A stretch of 6,030 bases of DNA, taken from the IMG/VR virus record IMGVR_UViG_3300006195_000036, positions 1 through 6,030 of that record; one strand, written 5' to 3'. The stretch's first letter is position 1, and each line of letters opens with the position of its first letter. Under the pieces are notes generated by a model, which had not been told where the DNA came from, made no database searches, and was given only the letters and a program-made list of their open reading frames with translations. A program made the translations under genes and the position numbers. Below, piece by piece: positions 1 to 6,030 of the stretch. This DNA is from a virus.

Positions 1-100
1 CGGCTTCACGTGAACCGATGCCGACTTGTAGAGCGAGAACGCCGCCTTCGGCAACTTGTAGCGCTTTTTGATCGGCGCGGTTTTCCAGGCGTTGCCCATC
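1..100. repeat. Terminal direct duplication, copy 1 (identical to 5931-6030); circular closure overlap
   Basis: Base-by-base comparison of the first 100 nt with the last 100 nt shows an exact match. The repeat lies inside the Zot coding sequence. Confidence 0.95.
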
Positions 101-507
101 GAGCACTCGGGCCACTCGTACCACCAGCGGCCGAGAAAGCCGATGTCGCGAATGTGCACGTGCCGGCCGACCAAGTCGCGCACGTTGCTATGGACGAGCT
201 TCGGACCCTGCGTGATGATGTAGAAGTCGATACCGCGGTGACGGTGCGTCTCAAGCGCTGCAATGTCATCGGGCACCTTCTGCCCCGGACCCATCGGACG
301 CCAGCGACGTTGCACCTCGTCGACCACGACGACGGCACCGTCCGGCACTTCCTCGTGCCACTTCCGCACGTCGATCGGCGTGTGCTCGAGCACAAGGCCG
401 TTGAGCCCGTCGACGAACAATGGCCGATCGCCGCTCAGCTTGCGAAGGAAGTCGACCGCCGCAGCGGTCTTGCCGTTGCCCGGCTGGCCAGTAAAAAGCG
501 TGATCAT
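1..507 (-). CDS. Zot/pI-like assembly NTPase, N-terminal P-loop domain (aa 1-169). It continues across the circular junction into 5930-5484, giving 317 aa in total.
   Basis: This part is missed by the ORF track because it runs off the window edge. My manual translation from ATG 507-505 is MITLFTGQPGNGKTAAAVDFLRKL...AVVVVDEVQRRW...ETHRHRGIDFYIITQGP...ECSMGNAWKT. Walker A GQPGNGKT lies at 466-489, followed by Walker B VVVVDE and the Zot-family HRHxGxD..ITQ motif. The frame is continuous with ORF 5484..6029 (507-99 = 408 nt, a multiple of 3). The start forms an ATGA overlap with the stop of the upstream pVI-like gene. Confidence 0.9.
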   Translation of the reverse strand, partial: MITLFTGQPGNGKTAAAVDFLRKLSGDRPLFVDGLNGLVLEHTPIDVRKWHEEVPDGAVVVVDEVQRRWRPMGPGQKVPDDIAALETHRHRGIDFYIITQGPKLVHSNVRDLVGRHVHIRDIGFLGRWWYEWPECSMGNAWKTAPIKKRYKLPKAAFSLYKSASVHVKP

Positions 508-782
508 GACGTGCGCAACGCCAGGTGCTTCATCGTCATCCAGGCCAGCCCCGACACAATGCCGCCACTCGTGATCGCCATGTAGTCGAAAAAGCCCGCC
601 ATCGCGAACAGGTTCGCGATCGTCGGCCCCAGGCCGGTGAATGCATTCTTCGCTGCGTCAAGCGCGGCCCCGATCGCCGAGTCAGCGCCGGTGTACGTCA
701 CGTAGCCGAAGCCGAGCGATGTCAGCACGCGCGAGACCAGCGGCCATGAGATGTTCGACAGCCACGCGCCTAAGGTGTCCAT
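504..782 (-). CDS. pVI-like small hydrophobic minor coat/assembly protein (92 aa)
   Basis: ATG at 782-780 (MDTLGAWLSNISWPLV...) has GGAAGGG 6 nt upstream. The protein is hydrophobic and Gly/Ala-rich and sits between the adsorption protein and Zot, as gVI does in Ff. The stop overlaps the Zot start (ATGA). The track ORF 504..833 was trimmed to this start. Confidence 0.7.
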   Translation of the reverse strand: MDTLGAWLSNISWPLVSRVLTSLGFGYVTYTGADSAIGAALDAAKNAFTGLGPTIANLFAMAGFFDYMAITSGGIVSGLAWMTMKHLALRTS

Positions 783-2050
783 CAGTTGCCCTTCCGTGAG
801 AGGCCCAAAAAGCCGATTGCTGCACTGACCCAAGCGAGCGCGAGCACCACGGGCCGAATACCCGTGGCCATGTCGCAGAACGGCTGCCAGCTAAAGCTGT
901 AGGTGTGCCCCAGAAGGTTCGCCGTCTGCGGCGCCGGGCAAGTGCCGTTGCTCGGCCCATACCCGCTGCTCGGCGTGATCGCGAGGGGGACCACCGTCGC
1001 CTGCAACGGCTGCGTCTCGACGGTGCCCGGTTTCATGCAGCCGACCGTGTCGGGGTCTTGCTCACACGGACTGCCTTCACCGCCACCCGAGCCCGAGCCC
1101 GTGCCACCCGAGCCGCCGCTACCGCACAGCTTGCTGCCCGGGTTCTTCGAACAAAACTCCGACTGCGTCTGCGATGTCGACCCCGTCGTGGTCGCCGTCC
1201 CGCTACTCGTGCCGCCCGTCGTCGTCGTGGTCGTTGTCGTCGTTGTCGTGCAGATGCCCTCGTTGCACGTCGTCGTCCCGCTCGTCGTCGACCCCGAGGA
1301 CGATGCCGGCCCCGAGCCCGTCGTCGTGCCGCTCGCCGCCCCAGACGGTGCCGGCGCGCTCGCAGGCCCAGAGCACGGCACCACCACCGACAGACCGTTA
1401 ACCTGACCGGGACACTGCCCCGGCGGCAGCGGCTCTGGCGGACTGCTCACCGGAGCCGGATCAGCGCCCCCACTCCCTGCGCCCGTACACGACCCACCAG
1501 CCGACGTCATCGGGCCCCACACGAACGACCCGTTCGAGTCCTTGACCGCCAACGTCCCGTCGTAGACGCAAAGTCCGATGCAGACCCTGTAGTCGCTCGC
1601 GCCGTTCAAGACCTTGTAATACGCGCTCGCGCTACCCGGCATCACTACGCCCTTGGCGGGACAAGCAGGCGGCGTGCAAACGCCGCCAACATCCGTCTTG
1701 GGCGCCGGGCAGGTCGTCACCGTCTTGTAGCAACCGTACGTTGCGTGCTGGAGCCATCCCGGCGCCCCCGAGCAGTCCTCACTGACGCTGTTGACATACG
1801 ACGGCGCCGCCGTCCCGGTGTGCCCCATGCACTGAGCGCTCCGCGTCGGCATTACCCCCGCCATGTTCTGGTAGTAGTCGTAGACCCGCCCTGTCGCCGT
1901 CTCCACCAATCCGCGACACGCCTGATCGACCGTGTCGTAACGCGCCGCCGTCGCGAAGTTCCACCACGTCGAATGCGTATCGACCAACGCCCACGCCGAC
2001 GACGCCCAGAGCATTGCCAAGACCGCCACCGCCCTGCGCAGCAGCTGCAT
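782..2050 (-). CDS. pIII-like minor coat/adsorption protein (422 aa)
   Basis: ATG at 2050-2048 is preceded by GAAGGAG plus 5 nt. The signal peptide is MQLLRRAVAVLAMLWASSAWA|LVD. Cys-rich N-terminal domains are separated by Gly/Ser/Thr/Pro-rich linkers, including an 11-Thr run and GSGGSGGTGSGSGGGEGS. The C-terminal membrane anchor is RPVVLALAWVSAAIGFLGLSRKGN. The upstream part of track ORF 782..2107 begins at a TTG and was trimmed. Confidence 0.8.
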   Translation of the reverse strand: MQLLRRAVAVLAMLWASSAWALVDTHSTWWNFATAARYDTVDQACRGLVETATGRVYDYYQNMAGVMPTRSAQCMGHTGTAAPSYVNSVSEDCSGAPGWLQHATYGCYKTVTTCPAPKTDVGGVCTPPACPAKGVVMPGSASAYYKVLNGASDYRVCIGLCVYDGTLAVKDSNGSFVWGPMTSAGGSCTGAGSGGADPAPVSSPPEPLPPGQCPGQVNGLSVVVPCSGPASAPAPSGAASGTTTGSGPASSSGSTTSGTTTCNEGICTTTTTTTTTTTGGTSSGTATTTGSTSQTQSEFCSKNPGSKLCGSGGSGGTGSGSGGGEGSPCEQDPDTVGCMKPGTVETQPLQATVVPLAITPSSGYGPSNGTCPAPQTANLLGHTYSFSWQPFCDMATGIRPVVLALAWVSAAIGFLGLSRKGN

Positions 2051-2124
2051 CACCACTCCTTCACGATGACCCACACGCACAGCGCGAAGGCGAGAAGGAC
2101 GGCCCAAAACTCAGGCGTTGCCAT
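2050..2124 (-). CDS. Putative 24-aa hydrophobic peptide, candidate pVII/pIX-like virion tip or assembly protein
   Basis: Manual translation from ATG 2124-2122 gives MATPEFWAVLLAFALCVWVIVKEW*. The TGA stop (2052-2050) shares its A with the pIII ATG (TGATG). The start overlaps the last codons of the 109-aa ORF, and GAGGGGG lies 10 nt upstream. It is below the ORF-track length cutoff, and the short length keeps confidence moderate. Confidence 0.45.
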   Translation of the reverse strand: MATPEFWAVLLAFALCVWVIVKEW

Positions 2125-2440
2125 GATCGCGAAGCCCCCTCGTTACGAACATCAGCGCGTACACCGCTAGCACGGCGGCGGCGATGCCCCACCCCATCAC
2201 CACCGCGTCTTCCGCGCCCATCAGCACACACGGTTGCGGAGTCGCCGCAAACGTCTGTGTTGAAGCCGTGCCCCCAAGCGGCGTGTAGCTGTAGGTGATC
2301 GTCGTCGCGGTCACTCCCGCGACATCGACAACGACCACGGAGCCGCCATGTTCCAAGTTAGCCCCGACGAGCGCAGACGCTGCCGCAGCGTTAGCAGCTT
2401 CGGCCGTGTCGTAGCACGCAGTGCCAACTTGGAATGCCAT
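2111..2440 (-). CDS. 109-aa protein with a C-terminal transmembrane segment paralogous to the major coat protein; putative minor coat protein
   Basis: ATG at 2440-2438 (MAFQVGTACYD...) has AAGGG 6 nt upstream and overlaps the pVIII stop (TGATG). The C-terminus AEDAVVMGWGIAAAVLAVYALMFVTRGLR aligns with pVIII ADALTVAGIVLAAIVAVYAFKFIRKGL. The long Arg-rich N-terminal extension of track ORF 2111..2764 overlaps pVIII out of frame and was rejected. Confidence 0.65.
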   Translation of the reverse strand: MAFQVGTACYDTAEAANAAAASALVGANLEHGGSVVVVDVAGVTATTITYSYTPLGGTASTQTFAATPQPCVLMGAEDAVVMGWGIAAAVLAVYALMFVTRGLRDHGNA

Positions 2441-2625
2441 CACAGACCCTTGCGGATGAACTTGAAGGCGTAGACCGCGACGATCGCGGCGAGGACGATG
2501 CCGGCGACGGTCAGAGCGTCGGCCTGCAGGTCGGTCAGGGCCGTCGACACGGCAGCGGGAACCGCGGCCATTGCGTAGCCGCCGAGCGAGGTGAGCGGCA
2601 CCAGGACCGCGAGCTTCTTGAACAT
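2440..2625 (-). CDS. Major coat protein, pVIII-type (61-aa precursor, about 41-aa mature)
   Basis: ATG at 2625-2623 is preceded by CAGGAG plus 6 nt. The signal peptide is MFKKLAVLVPLTSLGGYAMA and the mature protein is AVPAAVSTALTDLQADALTVAGIVLAAIVAVYAFKFIRKGL. This shows the classic acidic N-terminus, hydrophobic core and basic C-terminus layout. Confidence 0.85.
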   Translation of the reverse strand: MFKKLAVLVPLTSLGGYAMAAVPAAVSTALTDLQADALTVAGIVLAAIVAVYAFKFIRKGL

Positions 2626-2646
2626 GTGGAACTCCTGAAGGTAAGC

Positions 2647-2683
2647 GCTGCGAAATTGCAGCCCCGAGCCCTGCGCGCAGGGC
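2647..2683. promoter_or_regulatory. Two adjacent inverted repeats just upstream of the major coat gene
   Basis: GCTGC-GAAATT-GCAGC lies at 2647-2662 and the perfect 16-bp palindrome GCCCTGCGCGCAGGGC at 2668-2683. Both sit in the only sizeable gap (72 nt) inside the structural operon. The function is unknown; it could be an RNA stability or processing element, an attenuator, or a protein-binding site. Confidence 0.4.
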
Positions 2684-2697
2684 AAGGAGCTGGAATC

Positions 2698-2946
2698 TCA
2701 CAGCACGTAGGGCCTCACCCGCACCACGAAGCCGCGAGCGCGCAAAACGTCCGCGCTGCGACACGCAAGTTGGGAGTTCTCGAAGGGCTTACCCTCCGCC
2801 GTCCAGACGTCGACCCACTGGCCGTTGTCACGCTTGGCCCGCCCGACGCGCCGCTCGACCACATGCACGATCGGCAAGTGCGGGAGAAGGAAGCCAGCGC
2901 CCGACTGGCCTTCACGGTTATGGGCGTTGTTATGCGCAGCGCGCAT
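2698..2946 (-). CDS. Hypothetical 82-aa soluble protein
   Basis: ATG at 2946-2944 lies 1 nt after the ssb stop, with GAAGG 6 nt upstream. Third codon positions are strongly G/C-biased, like the neighbouring genes. There is no TM segment and I recognise no motif. Confidence 0.6.
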   Translation of the reverse strand: MRAAHNNAHNREGQSGAGFLLPHLPIVHVVERRVGRAKRDNGQWVDVWTAEGKPFENSQLACRSADVLRARGFVVRVRPYVL

Positions 2947-2947
2947 G

Positions 2948-3232
2948 TCAAGCCTTCGGGGCTTTGGCGGGCACGAAGGCGACGAGGTCGGTCAGTACCG
3001 CCTCGATCTGCCGAGATGCTGGGTTCGCTCGCATAGCGAACGTCCCACGATAGACGCCGACCTGGGCTTTCTTGATCAGGTCGTCGCCCTTGATCTTCAG
3101 CACGCCGACTTGATCGACCTCGCCCGCATCCGTCAGGAGCAGGCATTCGGCGCTGTGAGAGAAGCCGCTCCGGCCCTCCATGGTCCAGGCCTTGGGTTCG
3201 TTCAGCTTGAGGATTTGGATGATCGATTGCAT
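2948..3232 (-). CDS. gV-like single-stranded DNA-binding protein (94 aa)
   Basis: ATG at 3232 has GGAG 7 nt upstream. The size, the position after the replication module, and by-eye similarity to Ff gene V protein all fit: ECLLLTDAG vs QLCYVDLG, GVYRGTF vs GLYTVHL, and C-terminal LVAFVPAK vs LRLVPAK. Confidence 0.75.
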   Translation of the reverse strand: MQSIIQILKLNEPKAWTMEGRSGFSHSAECLLLTDAGEVDQVGVLKIKGDDLIKKAQVGVYRGTFAMRANPASRQIEAVLTDLVAFVPAKAPKA

Positions 3233-3277
3233 GGGTGACTCCGGTTAGTCAGGCGGGCGAGTGCCCTGTTGCCGGCA

Positions 3278-3325
3278 TTACGTGATGTAACGCCTTACAC
3301 GACGTTATCCCATTACACCGCGTAA
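3278..3325. promoter_or_regulatory. Operator array of three TTAC-N5-GTAA palindromes in the divergent ssb/regulator control region
   Basis: The sites are caTTACGTGATGTAAcg (3278-3290), ccTTACACGACGTTAtc (3295-3307, one mismatch) and caTTACACCGCGTAAcg (3313-3325). Centre-to-centre spacing is 17-18 bp. A weaker TTACGCCGTGTCA lies at 3344-3356. I did not see this palindrome anywhere else in the window. Confidence 0.6.
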
Positions 3326-3374
3326 CGCAACACCGGAGTACCCTTACGCCGTGTCAATCGCCACAGAACCCGCC

Positions 3375-3725
3375 ATGAACGCCTCAGTGACCCTCATCGA
3401 CCGCGCCACACAAGCCGAAAAGAGCAACTCACAGGCGCTCTCTACCGCCCTTGGAATGAGCGAAAGCGCGCTCGCCGTCTCCAAGCACCGAGGCCACATC
3501 AGCCCCGAAGTCGCCGCGAAACTCGCCGACCGCCTAGGGCTCGACCCCGCGCTATGGGCGGGCATCGCCGCGCTTGAAGCCATCAAGCAGCCCGACGCCA
3601 AGACAAAGACCCTCCTACAGCGCCTGCGAGAGAGGGCGCGCAACTCATGGCTTGCGATCACTGGACGACCCGGCGCCGCGCGGCCCTCTCAGCGTGCTCC
3701 CCGGGCCCGCCATCGCACCGCCTGA
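3375..3725 (+). CDS. Xre/cI-like helix-turn-helix transcriptional regulator (putative phage repressor/immunity protein), 116 aa
   Basis: This is the only convincing plus-strand gene. The HTH pattern is SQALSTALGMSESALAVSKHRGHISPEVAAKLADRLGLD. The start is uncertain: ATG 3375 has no SD, and GTG 3351 has GGAG 12 nt upstream. The Arg/Pro-rich C-terminal tail overlaps the recombinase 3' end. Confidence 0.7.
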   Translation: MNASVTLIDRATQAEKSNSQALSTALGMSESALAVSKHRGHISPEVAAKLADRLGLDPALWAGIAALEAIKQPDAKTKTLLQRLRERARNSWLAITGRPGAARPSQRAPRARHRTA

Positions 3726-4263
3726 CGCCCACTGCAGCACGCCGCGCCGTCGCATGTGCCACCCCCAGCCGCCGACCAATCCGCTTCCAGCCTAGACCCT
3801 CTGCGCGCAGCGCCAGAACCGCCGCCCGATCCACAGTCGGCTCCTTCCCGAAACGCACCCCCCGCTCCATCGCCTCCGCCCGCCCCGCAGCACATGCCTG
3901 CAGGATCATCGACCGATTCAACTGCGCGACAGCCCCAAGCACCTGCAGCAAGAACTCGCCCATCGCGTCGCTAGTATCGATAGGCTCAGTCAAAGACCGA
4001 AACGAAGCTCCAACCGCGACGACACGCTCCAAGATGGCGAGCAGATCGCGAAGACTCCGCGCCAGTCGGTCGACCTTGTAGACCACCAGCTCATCGCCCG
4101 CCTTGAGCTGCCCCAGGACCCACGCAAGTACCGGCCGATTCGACCCTTGCCGCCCGCTCCGCTTCTCCTCAAAAACCCTCCTCACGCCAGCACGCCTAAA
4201 CGCCGCCGTTTGCATCGCCGTGTCCTGTTGCACCGTAGACACCCTCGCATATCCGTACTTCAT
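3658..4263 (-). CDS. Small serine recombinase (resolvase/invertase family, 201 aa); putative integrase
   Basis: The N-terminus MKYGYARVSTVQQD carries the catalytic Ser motif YxRVST. It also has VYKVDRLARS (the DRLxR motif), helix-E-like DAMGEFLLQVLGAVAQLNR, and a C-terminal HTH GWKRIGRRLGVAHATARRA. The SD is weak (ACGGA). Confidence 0.85.
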   Translation of the reverse strand: MKYGYARVSTVQQDTAMQTAAFRRAGVRRVFEEKRSGRQGSNRPVLAWVLGQLKAGDELVVYKVDRLARSLRDLLAILERVVAVGASFRSLTEPIDTSDAMGEFLLQVLGAVAQLNRSMILQACAAGRAEAMERGVRFGKEPTVDRAAVLALRAEGLGWKRIGRRLGVAHATARRAAVGVRRCDGGPGEHAERAARRRVVQ

Positions 4264-4340
4264 TGGGTCCGTTCGTTGTTGTGGAACTCTTCACTACGCG
4301 CCGCACGCGCCCAACCCGACACCCGCGAACCGCCCTCGTG

Positions 4341-5213
4341 TCAAACCTCACACACCCTAAGCCGCCGAGGCGACTCAGGCTCGGTCGATATGTAGAACGT
4401 GTCCCCGAACCGCGAGAGCCACGTGAACGTGTCTCGCAGCCCGACGCACACGTCGGCGTAGACAAGATCCACCAGCTCGGCGAGCGTGGCTCCCGTGAAC
4501 TCAAGCCGCTGCGGCTGTGGCAACGCAACGGCTGCACTGCCGCTGTATCGATTCGACCAGTCCTCGCCTTGCTCGAACGCCTTGAGCATGTACTTCGATA
4601 GGTAGGCCGCGAGACGCCCCGGGCTGTAGCGCTTCCACGGCTTCTCTTTCCCGATATTGGCCGTGCCCCCCAGCTCACCGACCACGCTGCGCCAGATGGC
4701 TCGCACAAGGTCATAGCTCTTCACCCGTATGCCCTTGACGATGAACGACGGATCGATGCGGCGAACTGCCATGTGAACGTGCCACGCGCCCCGGCCCTGA
4801 GGCTCGAACGCAGCGACATAGCGCCACTCTGGGATCACACGTTTGATGCGGCGAACGAACTCCTTCATATGCCGCTTGCACAGCGCGAGATCGCGCTGGT
4901 TAGCCCGATAGGTCAGAGTCACCATGCAATCGAGCCCCAGGGCCTTGCAAAGCCGCCTGACGCGGGTCTTTGCGCGTCGCGCTGATCGCTTCCGATTCGC
5001 CTCGCGCTTTTCATCCTCGTTTGGGTCTTCACGTTCACCGCGTAGCACCTGAGCCGCGATGCTGTCCGAGTCGAGCAATCCCGCATCAACCCACTCAATC
5101 GGCCGCTGGATGCACGCTTCGCGATGACCGTGGCCCAGGTCATGGACCGTCATCCGGAAACGCGTGGTGCTGGGCTTACCTTCGAAGAGCTGACCGTCTA
5201 TGATCCGAAACAC
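4341..5213 (-). CDS. HUH-superfamily rolling-circle replication initiation protein (290 aa)
   Basis: The GTG start at 5213-5211 has GGGAG 5-6 nt upstream. Motif 1 is MVTLTY, motif 2 is AWHVHMAV (HUH, H145/H147) and motif 3 is AAYLSKYMLK (Y204/Y208, a two-tyrosine YxxKY arrangement). Confidence 0.85.
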   Translation of the reverse strand: MFRIIDGQLFEGKPSTTRFRMTVHDLGHGHREACIQRPIEWVDAGLLDSDSIAAQVLRGEREDPNEDEKREANRKRSARRAKTRVRRLCKALGLDCMVTLTYRANQRDLALCKRHMKEFVRRIKRVIPEWRYVAAFEPQGRGAWHVHMAVRRIDPSFIVKGIRVKSYDLVRAIWRSVVGELGGTANIGKEKPWKRYSPGRLAAYLSKYMLKAFEQGEDWSNRYSGSAAVALPQPQRLEFTGATLAELVDLVYADVCVGLRDTFTWLSRFGDTFYISTEPESPRRLRVCEV

Positions 5214-5242
5214 TGAGGCTCCCGGTATGAGTCTTAGTCACC

Positions 5243-5285
5243 GCCCCGGCCACTGCGTCAACAGTGAGTGCCGGGGCTTTCTTTT
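5243..5285 (+). terminator. Intrinsic-terminator-like hairpin plus T-tract, oriented on the plus strand
   Basis: The stem is GCCCCGGC-CACTG / CAGTG-(AGT bulge)-GCCGGGGC with loop CGTCAA (5243-5277), followed by TTTCTTTT (5278-5285). It lies immediately upstream of rep in minus-strand sense. It could equally be an origin or promoter-associated structure. Confidence 0.45.
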
Positions 5286-5292
5286 GGGGACG

Positions 5293-5314
5293 CTTCAGGC
5301 TTGATGTTCTGAAG
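5293..5314. promoter_or_regulatory. Hairpin CTTCAG-N10-CTGAAG with CTTGAT in the loop; candidate Rep nick site/origin
   Basis: The inverted repeat spans 5293-5298 and 5309-5314. The loop GCTTGATGTT contains CTTGAT (5300-5305) on the plus strand, which resembles the phiX174/pC194-class nick core CTTG/AT. Confidence 0.3.
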
Positions 5315-5333
5315 TGTCCTAGGAATAAATTTA

Positions 5334-5383
5334 GGCCGCGCTGCGCGCGGCCCGGGCCGGAGCTAAAGCTCCTGACCCGGGCC
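5334..5383. promoter_or_regulatory. Tandem GC-rich hairpins downstream of Zot; candidate terminator, packaging signal or complementary-strand origin
   Basis: Hairpin A is GGCCGCGC-TGC-GCGCGGCC (5334-5352). Hairpin B is GGCCCGGGCCGGAGCT..AGCTCCTGACCCGGGCC (5349-5383). In minus-strand sense they are followed by TAAATTTATT. They lie in the only large non-coding region. Confidence 0.5.
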
Positions 5384-5438
5384 GCCCAAGCAAGATAAAG
5401 CCGCTCTCGCGAGCACCACAGAGCACGCGCACACGCTC

Positions 5439-5455
5439 CCCGGCTGCACGCCGGG
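5439..5455. other. Short hairpin CCCGGC-TGCAC-GCCGGG, 28 nt downstream of the Zot stop
   Basis: The inverted repeat was read directly from the sequence. No T-tract follows it on either strand. Confidence 0.3.
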
Positions 5456-5483
5456 AATACCGCTCAGCAGGAGGGAGCACAGC

Positions 5484-6030
5484 TTAAGCCCGAGGCGCTG
5501 ACGCGGCACCAGCTGGCGCAGGCGCAACGTAATACGGGTCGAACGGCGGGTTCTTCAACCACTCGTAGCACGCCCTGGCGTCGATCGGCGCACGCATGCC
5601 GTTTTGGATGAAGCAGTAGCACTTGCCGGCTTGGCAATAGCCACCCTGGACGCGAGGCATGTTCACGACCTTGCGCAACGTATCGTAGGCCGGCGCTGTC
5701 TCCGGCTGCGCGGCAATGCGCGGCGTGAAGCTCGCGCGGATGCTATGGGCTGTGATGGGCTCGCTCGCCTTCAGCGACGGCCCTGCGAGCGGCCCAGGGA
5801 CCACGCTGACCGGTTCCGCAGGCGTTGGGTGCATACGCTCATTGATTCGCCGCATGGCGTACCACGAGCCCAACGCAACGAAGAGCACGAGCGCCGCCAC
5901 GAGGGCCACAAGCCACGGGAACGAACGCACCGGCTTCACGTGAACCGATGCCGACTTGTAGAGCGAGAACGCCGCCTTCGGCAACTTGTAGCGCTTTTTG
6001 ATCGGCGCGGTTTTCCAGGCGTTGCCCATC
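5484..6030 (-). CDS. Zot/pI-like assembly protein, C-terminal part (TM segment plus periplasmic domain); 5931-6030 duplicates 1-100
   Basis: Track ORF 5484..6029 begins at an internal Met of the protein that starts at 507. The TM helix is FPWLVALVAALVLFVALGSWYAM, followed by a Pro/Ala-rich segment and a Cys-containing C-terminal domain. The TAA stop is at 5486-5484. Confidence 0.9.
   Translation of the reverse strand, partial: MGNAWKTAPIKKRYKLPKAAFSLYKSASVHVKPVRSFPWLVALVAALVLFVALGSWYAMRRINERMHPTPAEPVSVVPGPLAGPSLKASEPITAHSIRASFTPRIAAQPETAPAYDTLRKVVNMPRVQGGYCQAGKCYCFIQNGMRAPIDARACYEWLKNPPFDPYYVAPAPAGAASAPRA
5931..6030. repeat. Terminal direct duplication, copy 2 (identical to 1-100)
   Basis: All 100 nt match exactly. 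Confidence 0.95.

Follow-up and report, generated by a model that had tools for sequence, protein, structure and literature searches.

The integrase (Int) of the phiRSM inoviruses has been shown experimentally to catalyze both integration and excision, and the phage attachment site, attP, lies between int and a repressor gene (Askora et al. 2011, summarised in PMC4471427). In this report, we examine a gene for a related protein in the viral record IMGVR_UViG_3300006195_000036 of IMG/VR, of which positions 1 to 6,030 were analysed; "the window" denotes this whole stretch of 6,030 nucleotides (nt). The gene, at 3658-4263 on the minus strand, encodes a recombinase that is 50% identical to phiRSM ORF14 (RSM1, RSM3 and Rs551) over residues 1-146, which bears out the kinship with phiRSM proposed in an initial annotation made from the letters alone. 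Sequence comparisons make it probable that this gene is the phage's own integrase/excisionase, part of a phiRSM-like Int-attP-repressor module. Most likely, the phage would insert at a host site with which it shares just two bases, AT, and hence could do so in either direction. The elements of the proposed module are as follows.

3658..4263, minus strand: recombinase gene, 201 amino acids (aa), from the open reading frame (ORF) list, Pfam and PHROGs; proposed integrase/excisionase.
4237..4239, minus strand: codon of Ser9, the predicted nucleophile (S10 in gamma-delta resolvase), from MAFFT and HMMER alignments to gamma-delta resolvase.
3865..3966, minus strand: helix E, residues 100-133, from AlphaFold secondary structure and alignments.
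3730..3828, minus strand: C-terminal helix-turn-helix (HTH) DNA-binding domain, residues 146-178, from weak HTH_23/HTH_38 matches, HMMER and the model.
3639..3656, no strand assigned: proposed attP core, 18 bp, reading CGCAAGCC-AT-GAGTTGCG on the minus strand, an imperfect palindrome.
3351..3725, plus strand: repressor-like HTH ORF, 124 aa from GTG or 116 aa from the ATG at 3375 (Phage_CI_repr, E=0.0014).
3233..3350, no strand assigned: putative regulatory region from which the repressor gene and the structural operon diverge, containing CATTAC...GTAACGC repeats.

The window protein is a resolvase/invertase-type small serine recombinase with the fold of gamma-delta resolvase. It begins MKYGYARVST, contains both YARVST and VDRLAR, and matches Pfam PF00239 (Resolvase) over residues 3-136 with 121.7 bits against a cut-off of 23.3 (E=3.4e-35); weaker matches to HTH_23/HTH_38 cover residues 145-175. 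Its identity is 38-40% to Tn3/gamma-delta resolvase and 40% to Gin, and the PDB sequence matches include gamma-delta entries 2gm4 (E~1e-33, 120 bits) and 1gdt (E~1e-30, 110 bits). An AlphaFold model based on 29 homologues (predicted local distance difference test score, pLDDT, 88.7) comprises a catalytic domain, a long helix (100-133), an HTH of three helices (146-178) and, at lower confidence, a helix in the tail; the tail itself (residues 179-201, RRCDGG...) is family-specific. Foldseek places gamma-delta/Tn3 resolvase first and also retrieves Sin and Gin, with template-modelling (TM) scores of 0.66-0.72 to 1gdt_A over 177 columns. Large serine recombinases appear at ranks 37-44 and align over the catalytic domain only, and the 201-aa protein has no Pfam domain of the large-integrase C-terminal region (recombinase domain, zinc ribbon, coiled coil; >400 aa). 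Pfam, PHROGs, AlphaFold and Foldseek thus agree with the initial description of a 201-aa resolvase/invertase-like serine recombinase with YARVST, VDRLAR and a C-terminal HTH.

The catalytic machinery is largely intact. HMMER aligns residues 3-174 with gamma-delta resolvase, without gaps in helix E, and its HTH alignment reaches gamma-delta residue 176. In both the MAFFT and the HMMER alignments, the equivalents of gamma-delta Y6, R8, Q14, Q19, R45, D67, R68 and R71 are all kept. The residues essential in Tn3 resolvase are represented here by Y5, R7, S9, R66 and R69, with glutamate, also a carboxylate, at the position of D36.

In the proposed attP, the crossover AT occupies 3647-3648, which is 10 nt beyond the stop codon of the recombinase gene. 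In the window, which holds the circular junction, the site reads …GATCGCAAGCC-AT-GAGTTGCGCGCCC… on the minus strand, the P arm ending in AAGCC; the two arms are P = …GTGATCGCAAGCC-AT and P' = AT-GAGTTGCGCGCCCTCTC…. The placement of the site is anchored by L003, an integrated relative on a 116-kb metagenome contig whose recombinase is 60% identical to that of the window and whose backbone is 80-95% identical in nucleotides. This prophage lies in the intergenic space between mfd and ispD, and the AAGCC and GAGTTGCGCGCCC arms of the window also flank it, at attR and attL, respectively. Its attL reads GGGCGAATT-AT-GAGTTGCGCGCCC and its attR CCTAAGCC-AT-AGAATTCGCGCCC. In five uninfected contigs from the same or related hosts (L099, L100, L101, L104 and L105), the empty attB, GGGCGAATT-AT-AGAATTCGCGCCC (in short form GCGAATT-AT-AGAATTCGC), was found 10 nt before the start codon of ispD, and these contigs encode the same or a 91-99% identical IspD. 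The only sequence common to attL, attR, attB and attP is AT, which is the signature of the 2-nt staggered cut of a serine recombinase. The same P-AT / AT-P' logic is observed in L008, L010, L059 and L109. By analogy, GATACAGCGGGCGAATTATAGAATTCGCGCCCACATG is a candidate attB for the window phage.

The attB of the L003-type phage occupies 2975-3000 of L099 (and is also present on L100, L101, L104 and L105) and corresponds to 10637-10665 of L003. Given its position 10 nt upstream of ispD, insertion there detaches the essential ispDF operon from the sequence that precedes it; with the prophage in one of its orientations, transcription of the phage rep-recombinase unit would run towards ispD.

All four L003 arms carry G-C-G (-11 to -9) as well as A/T (-5/-4), and an outer CGCGCCC is common to P' and B'. 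The P arm of the window fits this half-site pattern less well (9/15 symmetric). The attP core and the stop codon of the recombinase lie between the arms of a perfect 8-nt inverted repeat (GAGAGGGC at 3630-3637, GCCCTCTC at 3683-3690); as this repeat is not centred on the AT, it is not counted as part of attP.

The wider family points in the same direction. Among one-genome-per-species contigs, 580 relatives of the recombinase were found, mostly in Comamonadaceae and other Burkholderiales, and 80 loci were fetched. Most of these have Zot, and often Rep, 1-3 kb upstream on the same strand, and a repressor homologue, where detected, about 6-7 kb upstream on the opposite strand. This arrangement makes the recombinase gene the last gene of an integrated inovirus. 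In the integrated inovirus prophages the junction lies 5-12 nt past the recombinase stop, with the recombinase at the very edge. A metagenome search with the recombinase alone added 8 loci, mostly short, of which L010 was informative. Since the relatives adjoin prophage junctions, the integrase reading is well grounded.

Allowing up to 3 mismatches, the 18-bp attP core occurs once in the genome, with 0.01 matches expected by chance. Neither accessory sites nor a res-like array was found alongside this single copy, although degenerate half-sites could escape a sequence search. These observations bear on whether the protein might be a Hin/Gin-like DNA invertase that switches a phage segment such as a host-range gene. 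The PHROGs match (phrog_125, E=7e-52) is labelled "DNA invertase", the protein is 40% identical to Gin, and the N-terminal half of pIII is hypervariable between the window and L003. However, the genome has a single att-like site and no inverted pair around any segment, and the junctions of relatives put the crossover at the prophage boundary. Flipping of the prophage is, as far as shown, a by-product of the palindromic core rather than a dedicated switch. We regard a segment-switching role as highly improbable.

A search of the window for tRNA genes detected neither a tRNA nor a tRNA fragment, and an attP of the phiRSM type, derived from a tRNA, was ruled out on this ground. Many relatives, including Dulem virus 61, do have a sequence resembling a tRNA 3' end (…CCGTTTCCGCCA, …CCGCCTCCGCCA) at the junction or attP, as in phiRSM. 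It lies some 10-30 nt past the recombinase stop in L030, L031, L036, L038, L042, L044, L045, L052 and L085, on the repressor side in L063 and L067, and at 2415-2440 in L098. As so many relatives use tRNA 3' ends, the AT-core, non-tRNA mode is a sub-lineage trait, and it occurs with both canonical and variant forms of helix E. In a more distant group from Variovorax (L007, L026, L027, L028 and L049), the prophages lie between ppnK and hrcA in one orientation throughout, and by eye both junctions have a longer, non-palindromic core, TACAAC, unlike the AT-core group.

How might integration proceed? What the comparisons show is the family and fold of the protein, the residue identities and, in relatives, the four att sequences and both orientations; the activity of the window protein, its own attB and the following steps, taken from the chemistry of the family, are inferred. 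Recombinase dimers would bind attP (3639-3656) and a chromosomal attB that resembles it in being nearly palindromic, and the two dimers would synapse to form a tetramer. Ser9 would then cut all four strands at the central AT to leave 2-nt overhangs, half of the complex would turn by 180 degrees, and the ends would be rejoined. In the resulting prophage, the repressor and recombinase genes would lie at opposite edges. Integration would also sever the repressor ORF after Ser99, the host arm providing a stop codon.

Both junction polarities were found in relatives, at two host loci as well as in L109. At the mfd-ispD site, L003 has the junctions B-AT-P' and P-AT-B', and L004, from a sister sample and with a prophage 99.97% identical, has rc(B')-AT-P' (rc, reverse complement). 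An assembly artefact was considered for the inverted junction of L004 and rejected, given that the joined sequences share no k-mer longer than 7 nt there. The junction at the second host locus is B-AT-P' in L008 and P-AT-rc(B) in L059, the latter recognised by a 36-nt match with one mismatch. In L109, both junctions, on one contig, are inverted relative to the asymmetric site of the GCGAATT-AT-AGAATTCGC type; L017 and L107 have the same repressor-side arm as L109. Because AT is self-complementary and no accessory sites were found, insertion, or flipping by attL x attR, would be possible both ways. This agrees with established behaviour: the polarity of serine integrase reactions is determined solely by the central dinucleotide (PMC3783163, refs 43 and 44 therein), and activated Tn3 resolvase acting on two copies of site I without accessory sites gives resolution and inversion at about 1:1 (PMC2602789). 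The two orientations could reflect either independent insertions or flipping in situ by attL x attR.

The proposed crossover falls within the repressor-like ORF. This ORF is convergent with the recombinase gene, with which it has 68 nt in common, and it matches phrog_4441/638 over residues 9-103 (E~2e-8); these profiles stop at around residue 102. The last base of its Ser99 codon (TCA, 3645-3647) is the A of the crossover AT. TGG follows, and the ORF has no stop codon of its own ahead of attP. The remaining 25 aa (3648-3725), which exist in the circular form only, are encoded antisense to the recombinase tail. In a reconstructed circle of L003, the repressor reads on for 17 codons, versus 25 in the window. 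In six prophage junctions (L003, L004, L008, L017, L107 and L109), the repressor homologue ends …(N/K)S*, and its stop codon, TAA or TAG, is composed of the core T and two host bases in either orientation. Repressor-side junctions lie at 4503-4510 in L003, 4503-4510 in L004 and 32-40 in L008. The length of the repressor tail may thus act as a switch that depends on the integration state.

In the divergent region, the CATTAC…GTAACGC motifs (3276-3354) form two families of direct repeats, D1/D2 (3276-3328), and an inverted repeat of 20 nt, I1 (3315-3354); they are candidate operators.

Helix E of the recombinase, AVAQLNRSMILQACAAG, is unusual for its family. The gap-free alignment places N116 (3916-3918), Q122 (3898-3900) and A123 (3895-3897) at gamma-delta E118, E124 and R125; of E118, R119, E124 and R125, only R119 is retained (as R117). 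The departure from the consensus that had first been noticed by eye is therefore genuine. Of the 120 database homologues nearest to the protein, 118 retain E118, 113 retain E124 and 118 retain R125; alanine at the R125 position is unique among them. Of 98 recombinase copies in the fetched loci, 83 have E/E/R and six have E/Q/R, the latter all prophage recombinases. The combination N/Q/(A|S) is confined to the window protein (also on L001 and L002), to L008 (P0002, 71% identical) and to L059 (~66%), and both L008 and L059 are integrated at precise prophage junctions. The changes are accompanied by D/A/E at the positions equivalent to 101/102/105 and by K at 56. These non-conserved residues make the protein less typical without removing it from the small serine recombinases.

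In Tn3 resolvase, E124 and R125 are non-essential for catalysis, and R125A/K mutants are proficient with altered synapsis (PMC2794168). E118A/Q mutants cleave at about 1.5-2% of the normal rate (~50-fold lower), with no detectable resolution in vivo; E118 is on the dimer interface, and its role is probably non-catalytic or accessory (PMC2794168). The initial annotation had viewed substitutions of the E124Q type as activating changes that would make a simple attP x attB integrase. The first part of this idea holds conditionally: E124Q permits recombination between two copies of site I in combinations such as D102Y E124Q, and not by itself (PMC2602789). The second part is not supported, as relatives with canonical E/E/R (phiRSM1 ORF14, Dulem virus 61 and L003) integrate anyway; it does not appear to be the helix-E changes that make this enzyme an integrase. 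The best explanation for N116/Q122/A123 may be a conserved, lineage-specific remodelling of the regulatory dimer/tetramer interface.

A stronger version of this idea holds that N116/Q122/A123, together with D/A/E at 101/102/105 and K at 56, constitute a naturally "activated" recombinase, in which synapsis and catalysis are freed from regulatory interfaces; the changes would then be functionally important (e.g. for higher or less selective integration) rather than tolerated drift. They coincide with the part of the E helix and dimer interface in which the activating mutations of Tn3/gamma-delta resolvase are concentrated (PMC2602789), and the best PDB match is the activated mutant 2gm4 (120 bits), above wild-type 1gdt (110 bits). 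Despite divergence to ~66-71% identity, three members under purifying selection retain the triple change, and E124Q alone recurs in 6 further prophage recombinases. However, att sites of this kind are also used, and both orientations also seen, in relatives with E/E/R (L003/L004, L109), and the phenotype credited to activation is therefore not specific to the variant. Further, E118Q and R125A reduce activity or synapsis in Tn3 resolvase (PMC2794168). Natural activation is thus a possibility that we consider rather doubtful.

We put forward, tentatively and with less conviction than the integrase assignment itself, a composite proposal. The window protein may be a natural "minimal integrase": an enzyme of ~200 aa that needs neither accessory sites nor a directionality factor, acts on near-palindromic sites of ~20-30 bp that have only a palindromic AT in common, inserts the phage either way round and allows the prophage to flip itself. 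Its E helix (N116/Q122/A123) would be the counterpart of laboratory "activated" resolvases, and the repressor, short in lysogens and 25 aa longer on the episome, would serve as an integration sensor.

Several observations weigh against assigning an integrase function to the window protein. The initial annotation had looked to integrated copies as a check; relatives with recombinase-proximal junctions were indeed found, but no integrated copy of the exact phage was, the identical protein being present on only two other contigs (short or circular), neither of them integrated. No match to the exact 21-nt P-arm pattern was found in IMG/VR and JGI metagenome contigs. Because the recombinases are only 60% identical, carrying the attB of L003 over to the window phage is an extrapolation. 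L004, having the same host arm at both flanks of a metagenome contig, represents a mixed population rather than one resolved genome. Two residues are also at odds with expectation: D36, which is essential in Tn3 resolvase (PMC2794168), is glutamate here, as in the majority of the closest homologues (86/120), and the window has asparagine at the position where Tn3 E118A/Q mutants lose detectable resolution in vivo (PMC2794168).

The phage is known only as a circular contig or one of more than one genome unit, and this would suit a true resolvase that acts only on multimers of the replicative form (attP x attP in cis) in a non-integrating phage. Membership in the small resolvase family, the central AT, which is the crossover point of res site I, and the capacity of rolling-circle replicons to form multimers are also compatible with that role. 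On the other side, the closest recombinase relatives (L008 and L059) and the closest backbone relative (L003) are integrated at the homologous site; the genome has one att-like site, with no res-like accessory array found; and phiRSM Int is experimentally an integrase (PMC4471427). An exclusive role in multimer resolution is accordingly unlikely.

The residue changes could alternatively mark a decaying or inactive remnant that lost its function along with the equivalents of E118, E124 and R125. Three conserved positions are altered together, the alanine at R125 is unique among the 120 closest homologues, and Tn3 E118 mutants fail to resolve in vivo (PMC2794168). Yet the ORF is intact and identical in three independent data sets, and the same substitutions occur in two diverged relatives at precise prophage junctions. 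The ratio of nonsynonymous to synonymous substitution rates (dN/dS) between the window and L008 is ~0.15, a merely approximate value because dS is saturated. All residues essential for catalysis by Tn3 resolvase are retained, D36 as glutamate. Decay is a very unlikely explanation, and integration/excision remains our preferred function for the protein.

If this assignment is correct, it has implications beyond the window. Boundaries of inovirus prophages are usually sought as direct repeats of at least 10 bp (Roux et al. 2019, PMC6813254). Prophages with a 2-bp core are missed by such searches, and those of this kind in Comamonadaceae and other Burkholderiales are therefore probably under-called. 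Engineered recombinases rest on the catalytic domains of resolvases and invertases activated in the laboratory; a natural small serine recombinase on simple sites, with a sub-lineage altered at E118/E124/R125, offers a comparison set for the dimer-tetramer switch. Finally, orientation-neutral insertion 10 nt upstream of ispDF and a repressor C-terminus that depends on integration would constitute testable links between phage state and gene expression.

The window is not a linear genome. Its bases 1-100 are identical to 5931-6030, and this exact overlap of 100 nt identifies it as a circular contig with a true genome of 5,930 nt. The minus strand carries every recognisable gene except one, the repressor-like ORF at 3351-3725 (+). 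Beyond the module, the features are as follows.

5931..6030, no strand assigned: terminal repeat, the assembly overlap of the circular contig, a copy of 1-100.
510 to 1, then 5930 to 5484, minus strand: Zot/pI gene, 318 aa, its frame unbroken across the circle junction.
4341..5213, minus strand: Rep, rolling-circle replication initiator (PF23343, E=3e-15; phrog_3419, E=1e-50).
2948..3232, minus strand: 94-aa ORF without a Pfam or PHROGs match, 96% identical to its L003 counterpart.
Minus strand: 82-aa ORF without a family match.
2440..2685, minus strand: coat B.
Minus strand: 109-aa ORF.
782..2107, minus strand: TspB/pIII-like protein.
504..833, minus strand: DUF2523/pVI.

The initial annotation placed the recombinase gene between rep and a single-stranded-DNA-binding (ssb) gene. 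Rep does lie upstream on the same strand, 77 nt away, and a scan of 3150-5500 for sigma-70 promoters gave no hit, also not between the two genes, which are probably co-transcribed. On the other side, the convergent repressor ORF comes next, and the 94-aa "ssb" has no family match; for this ORF, the label of gV-like ssDNA-binding protein is positional only. The region between Zot and Rep (5214-5483) contains a GC-rich hairpin with a 9-bp stem at 5333-5353 (-), followed by an A/T-rich run. This hairpin could be a terminator after Zot or part of a replication origin.

A megablast of the whole window against GenBank phages returned no match. L001 (ENA contig ERZ27257635, 6,943 nt) is longer than one genome unit; part of it is 100% identical to the window and the rest 97.6%, and at one end small ORFs of 102 and 71 aa replace those of 94 and 82 aa. 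The contig is either a heterologous tandem or the product of an assembler that joined two strains present together.

The module appears to have been exchanged between backbones, as the initial annotation had suspected. The repressor-attP-recombinase block (~3240-4325) is 45-70% identical to L003, versus 80-95% for the flanking Rep, Zot, pVI and 94-aa ORF, and the closest recombinase (L008, 71%) sits on another backbone, with a Rep_trans initiator. This gap in identity and the different backbone of L008 support module exchange. The codon argument first offered for it was an excess of T- and A-ending codons; this sign of foreign origin was dropped, as the recombinase and Rep have equal G+C content at third codon positions (GC3; 0.743 and 0.746) and the difference in A/T-ending codons (26% vs 20%) is not significant (p=0.10). 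What stands is the bias for G over C at third positions (113:37 vs 486:393, p=6e-6); AGG is also over-used (6/30 arginine codons vs 6/118). The G3-over-C3 bias and the mosaic comparison lend support to a modular origin. Two other segments diverge from L003: the N-terminal two-thirds of the pIII/TspB-like protein (~1000-2080) and the 82-aa ORF (~2674-2937) are 30-60% identical, with neighbours at 80-95%. L003 also has an extra coat-B-like ORF of 48 aa between pVI and Zot that the window lacks.

The closest database relatives of the recombinase are those of Dulem virus 61 (PP511899; 56% identity) and of Comamonadaceae inovirus prophages (45-62%), and these have the same layout at the prophage edge, i.e. 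the recombinase followed by a convergent small ORF. However, Dulem virus 61 and many others have an attP like a tRNA 3' end (...CCGCCTCCGCCA, ...CCGTTTCCGCCA) and a canonical helix E, and the window has neither.

Inoviruses that depend on XerCD/dif, such as XacF1 (PMC5666396) and phiRSS0 (PMC4471427), also have attP inside a regulator ORF that is split or truncated upon integration. They rely on XerC/D, tyrosine recombinases of the host that act at dif, whereas the window phage brings a serine recombinase, and the host arm would supply the stop codon of the regulator.

The large serine integrases (phiC31, Bxb1, A118) likewise integrate phages by attP x attB recombination with a minimal shared core of 2 bp. 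For these enzymes, sites synapse, cleave and rotate equally in parallel and antiparallel alignments, and strand exchange is efficient only in parallel (PMC3783163, refs 43 and 44 therein). In contrast, the window protein has 201 aa, a simple HTH and a core that is naturally palindromic. Its lack of a recombinase domain, zinc ribbon and coiled coil leaves no obvious means of directionality control and no obvious recombination directionality factor (RDF).

With Tn3/gamma-delta resolvase, the protein shares its fold, its domain order and a crossover at a central palindromic AT. The wild-type resolvase requires a 114-bp res with two accessory sites, in cis and as direct repeats; the window has a single simple site, and integration would be intermolecular. 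Activated mutants of Tn3/gamma-delta resolvase have Q at E124 and K at E56, as does the window recombinase, and they perform both inversion and resolution on simple sites, a parallel to the two prophage orientations. Asparagine at E118 and alanine at R125, however, are not among the activating changes given in PMC2794168 and PMC2602789, and Tn3 mutations at these positions lower activity or synapsis (PMC2794168).

The nearest counterpart remains the Int (ORF14)-attP-repressor (ORF15) module of phiRSM1 and phiRSM3 from Ralstonia solanacearum: the type of inovirus, the recombinase family and the placement of attP between int and the repressor gene are the same. The differences lie in the details. 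In phiRSM, attP is upstream of int and the repressor is co-oriented, whereas in the window attP is 10 nt downstream of the int stop codon, inside a convergent repressor ORF. The attP of phiRSM has a 13-nt match to the 3' end of tRNA-Ser, whereas here AT alone would be shared with a near-palindromic, non-tRNA attB. Helix E has the canonical E/E/R in phiRSM and N/Q/A in the window, the genomes measure 9.0 kb and 5.9 kb, respectively, and prophages of the window type, unlike phiRSM, occur in both orientations. The phiRSM-type module is thus already known; what is new here is the AT core, the non-tRNA site, the two orientations, the helix-E variant and the smaller genome.

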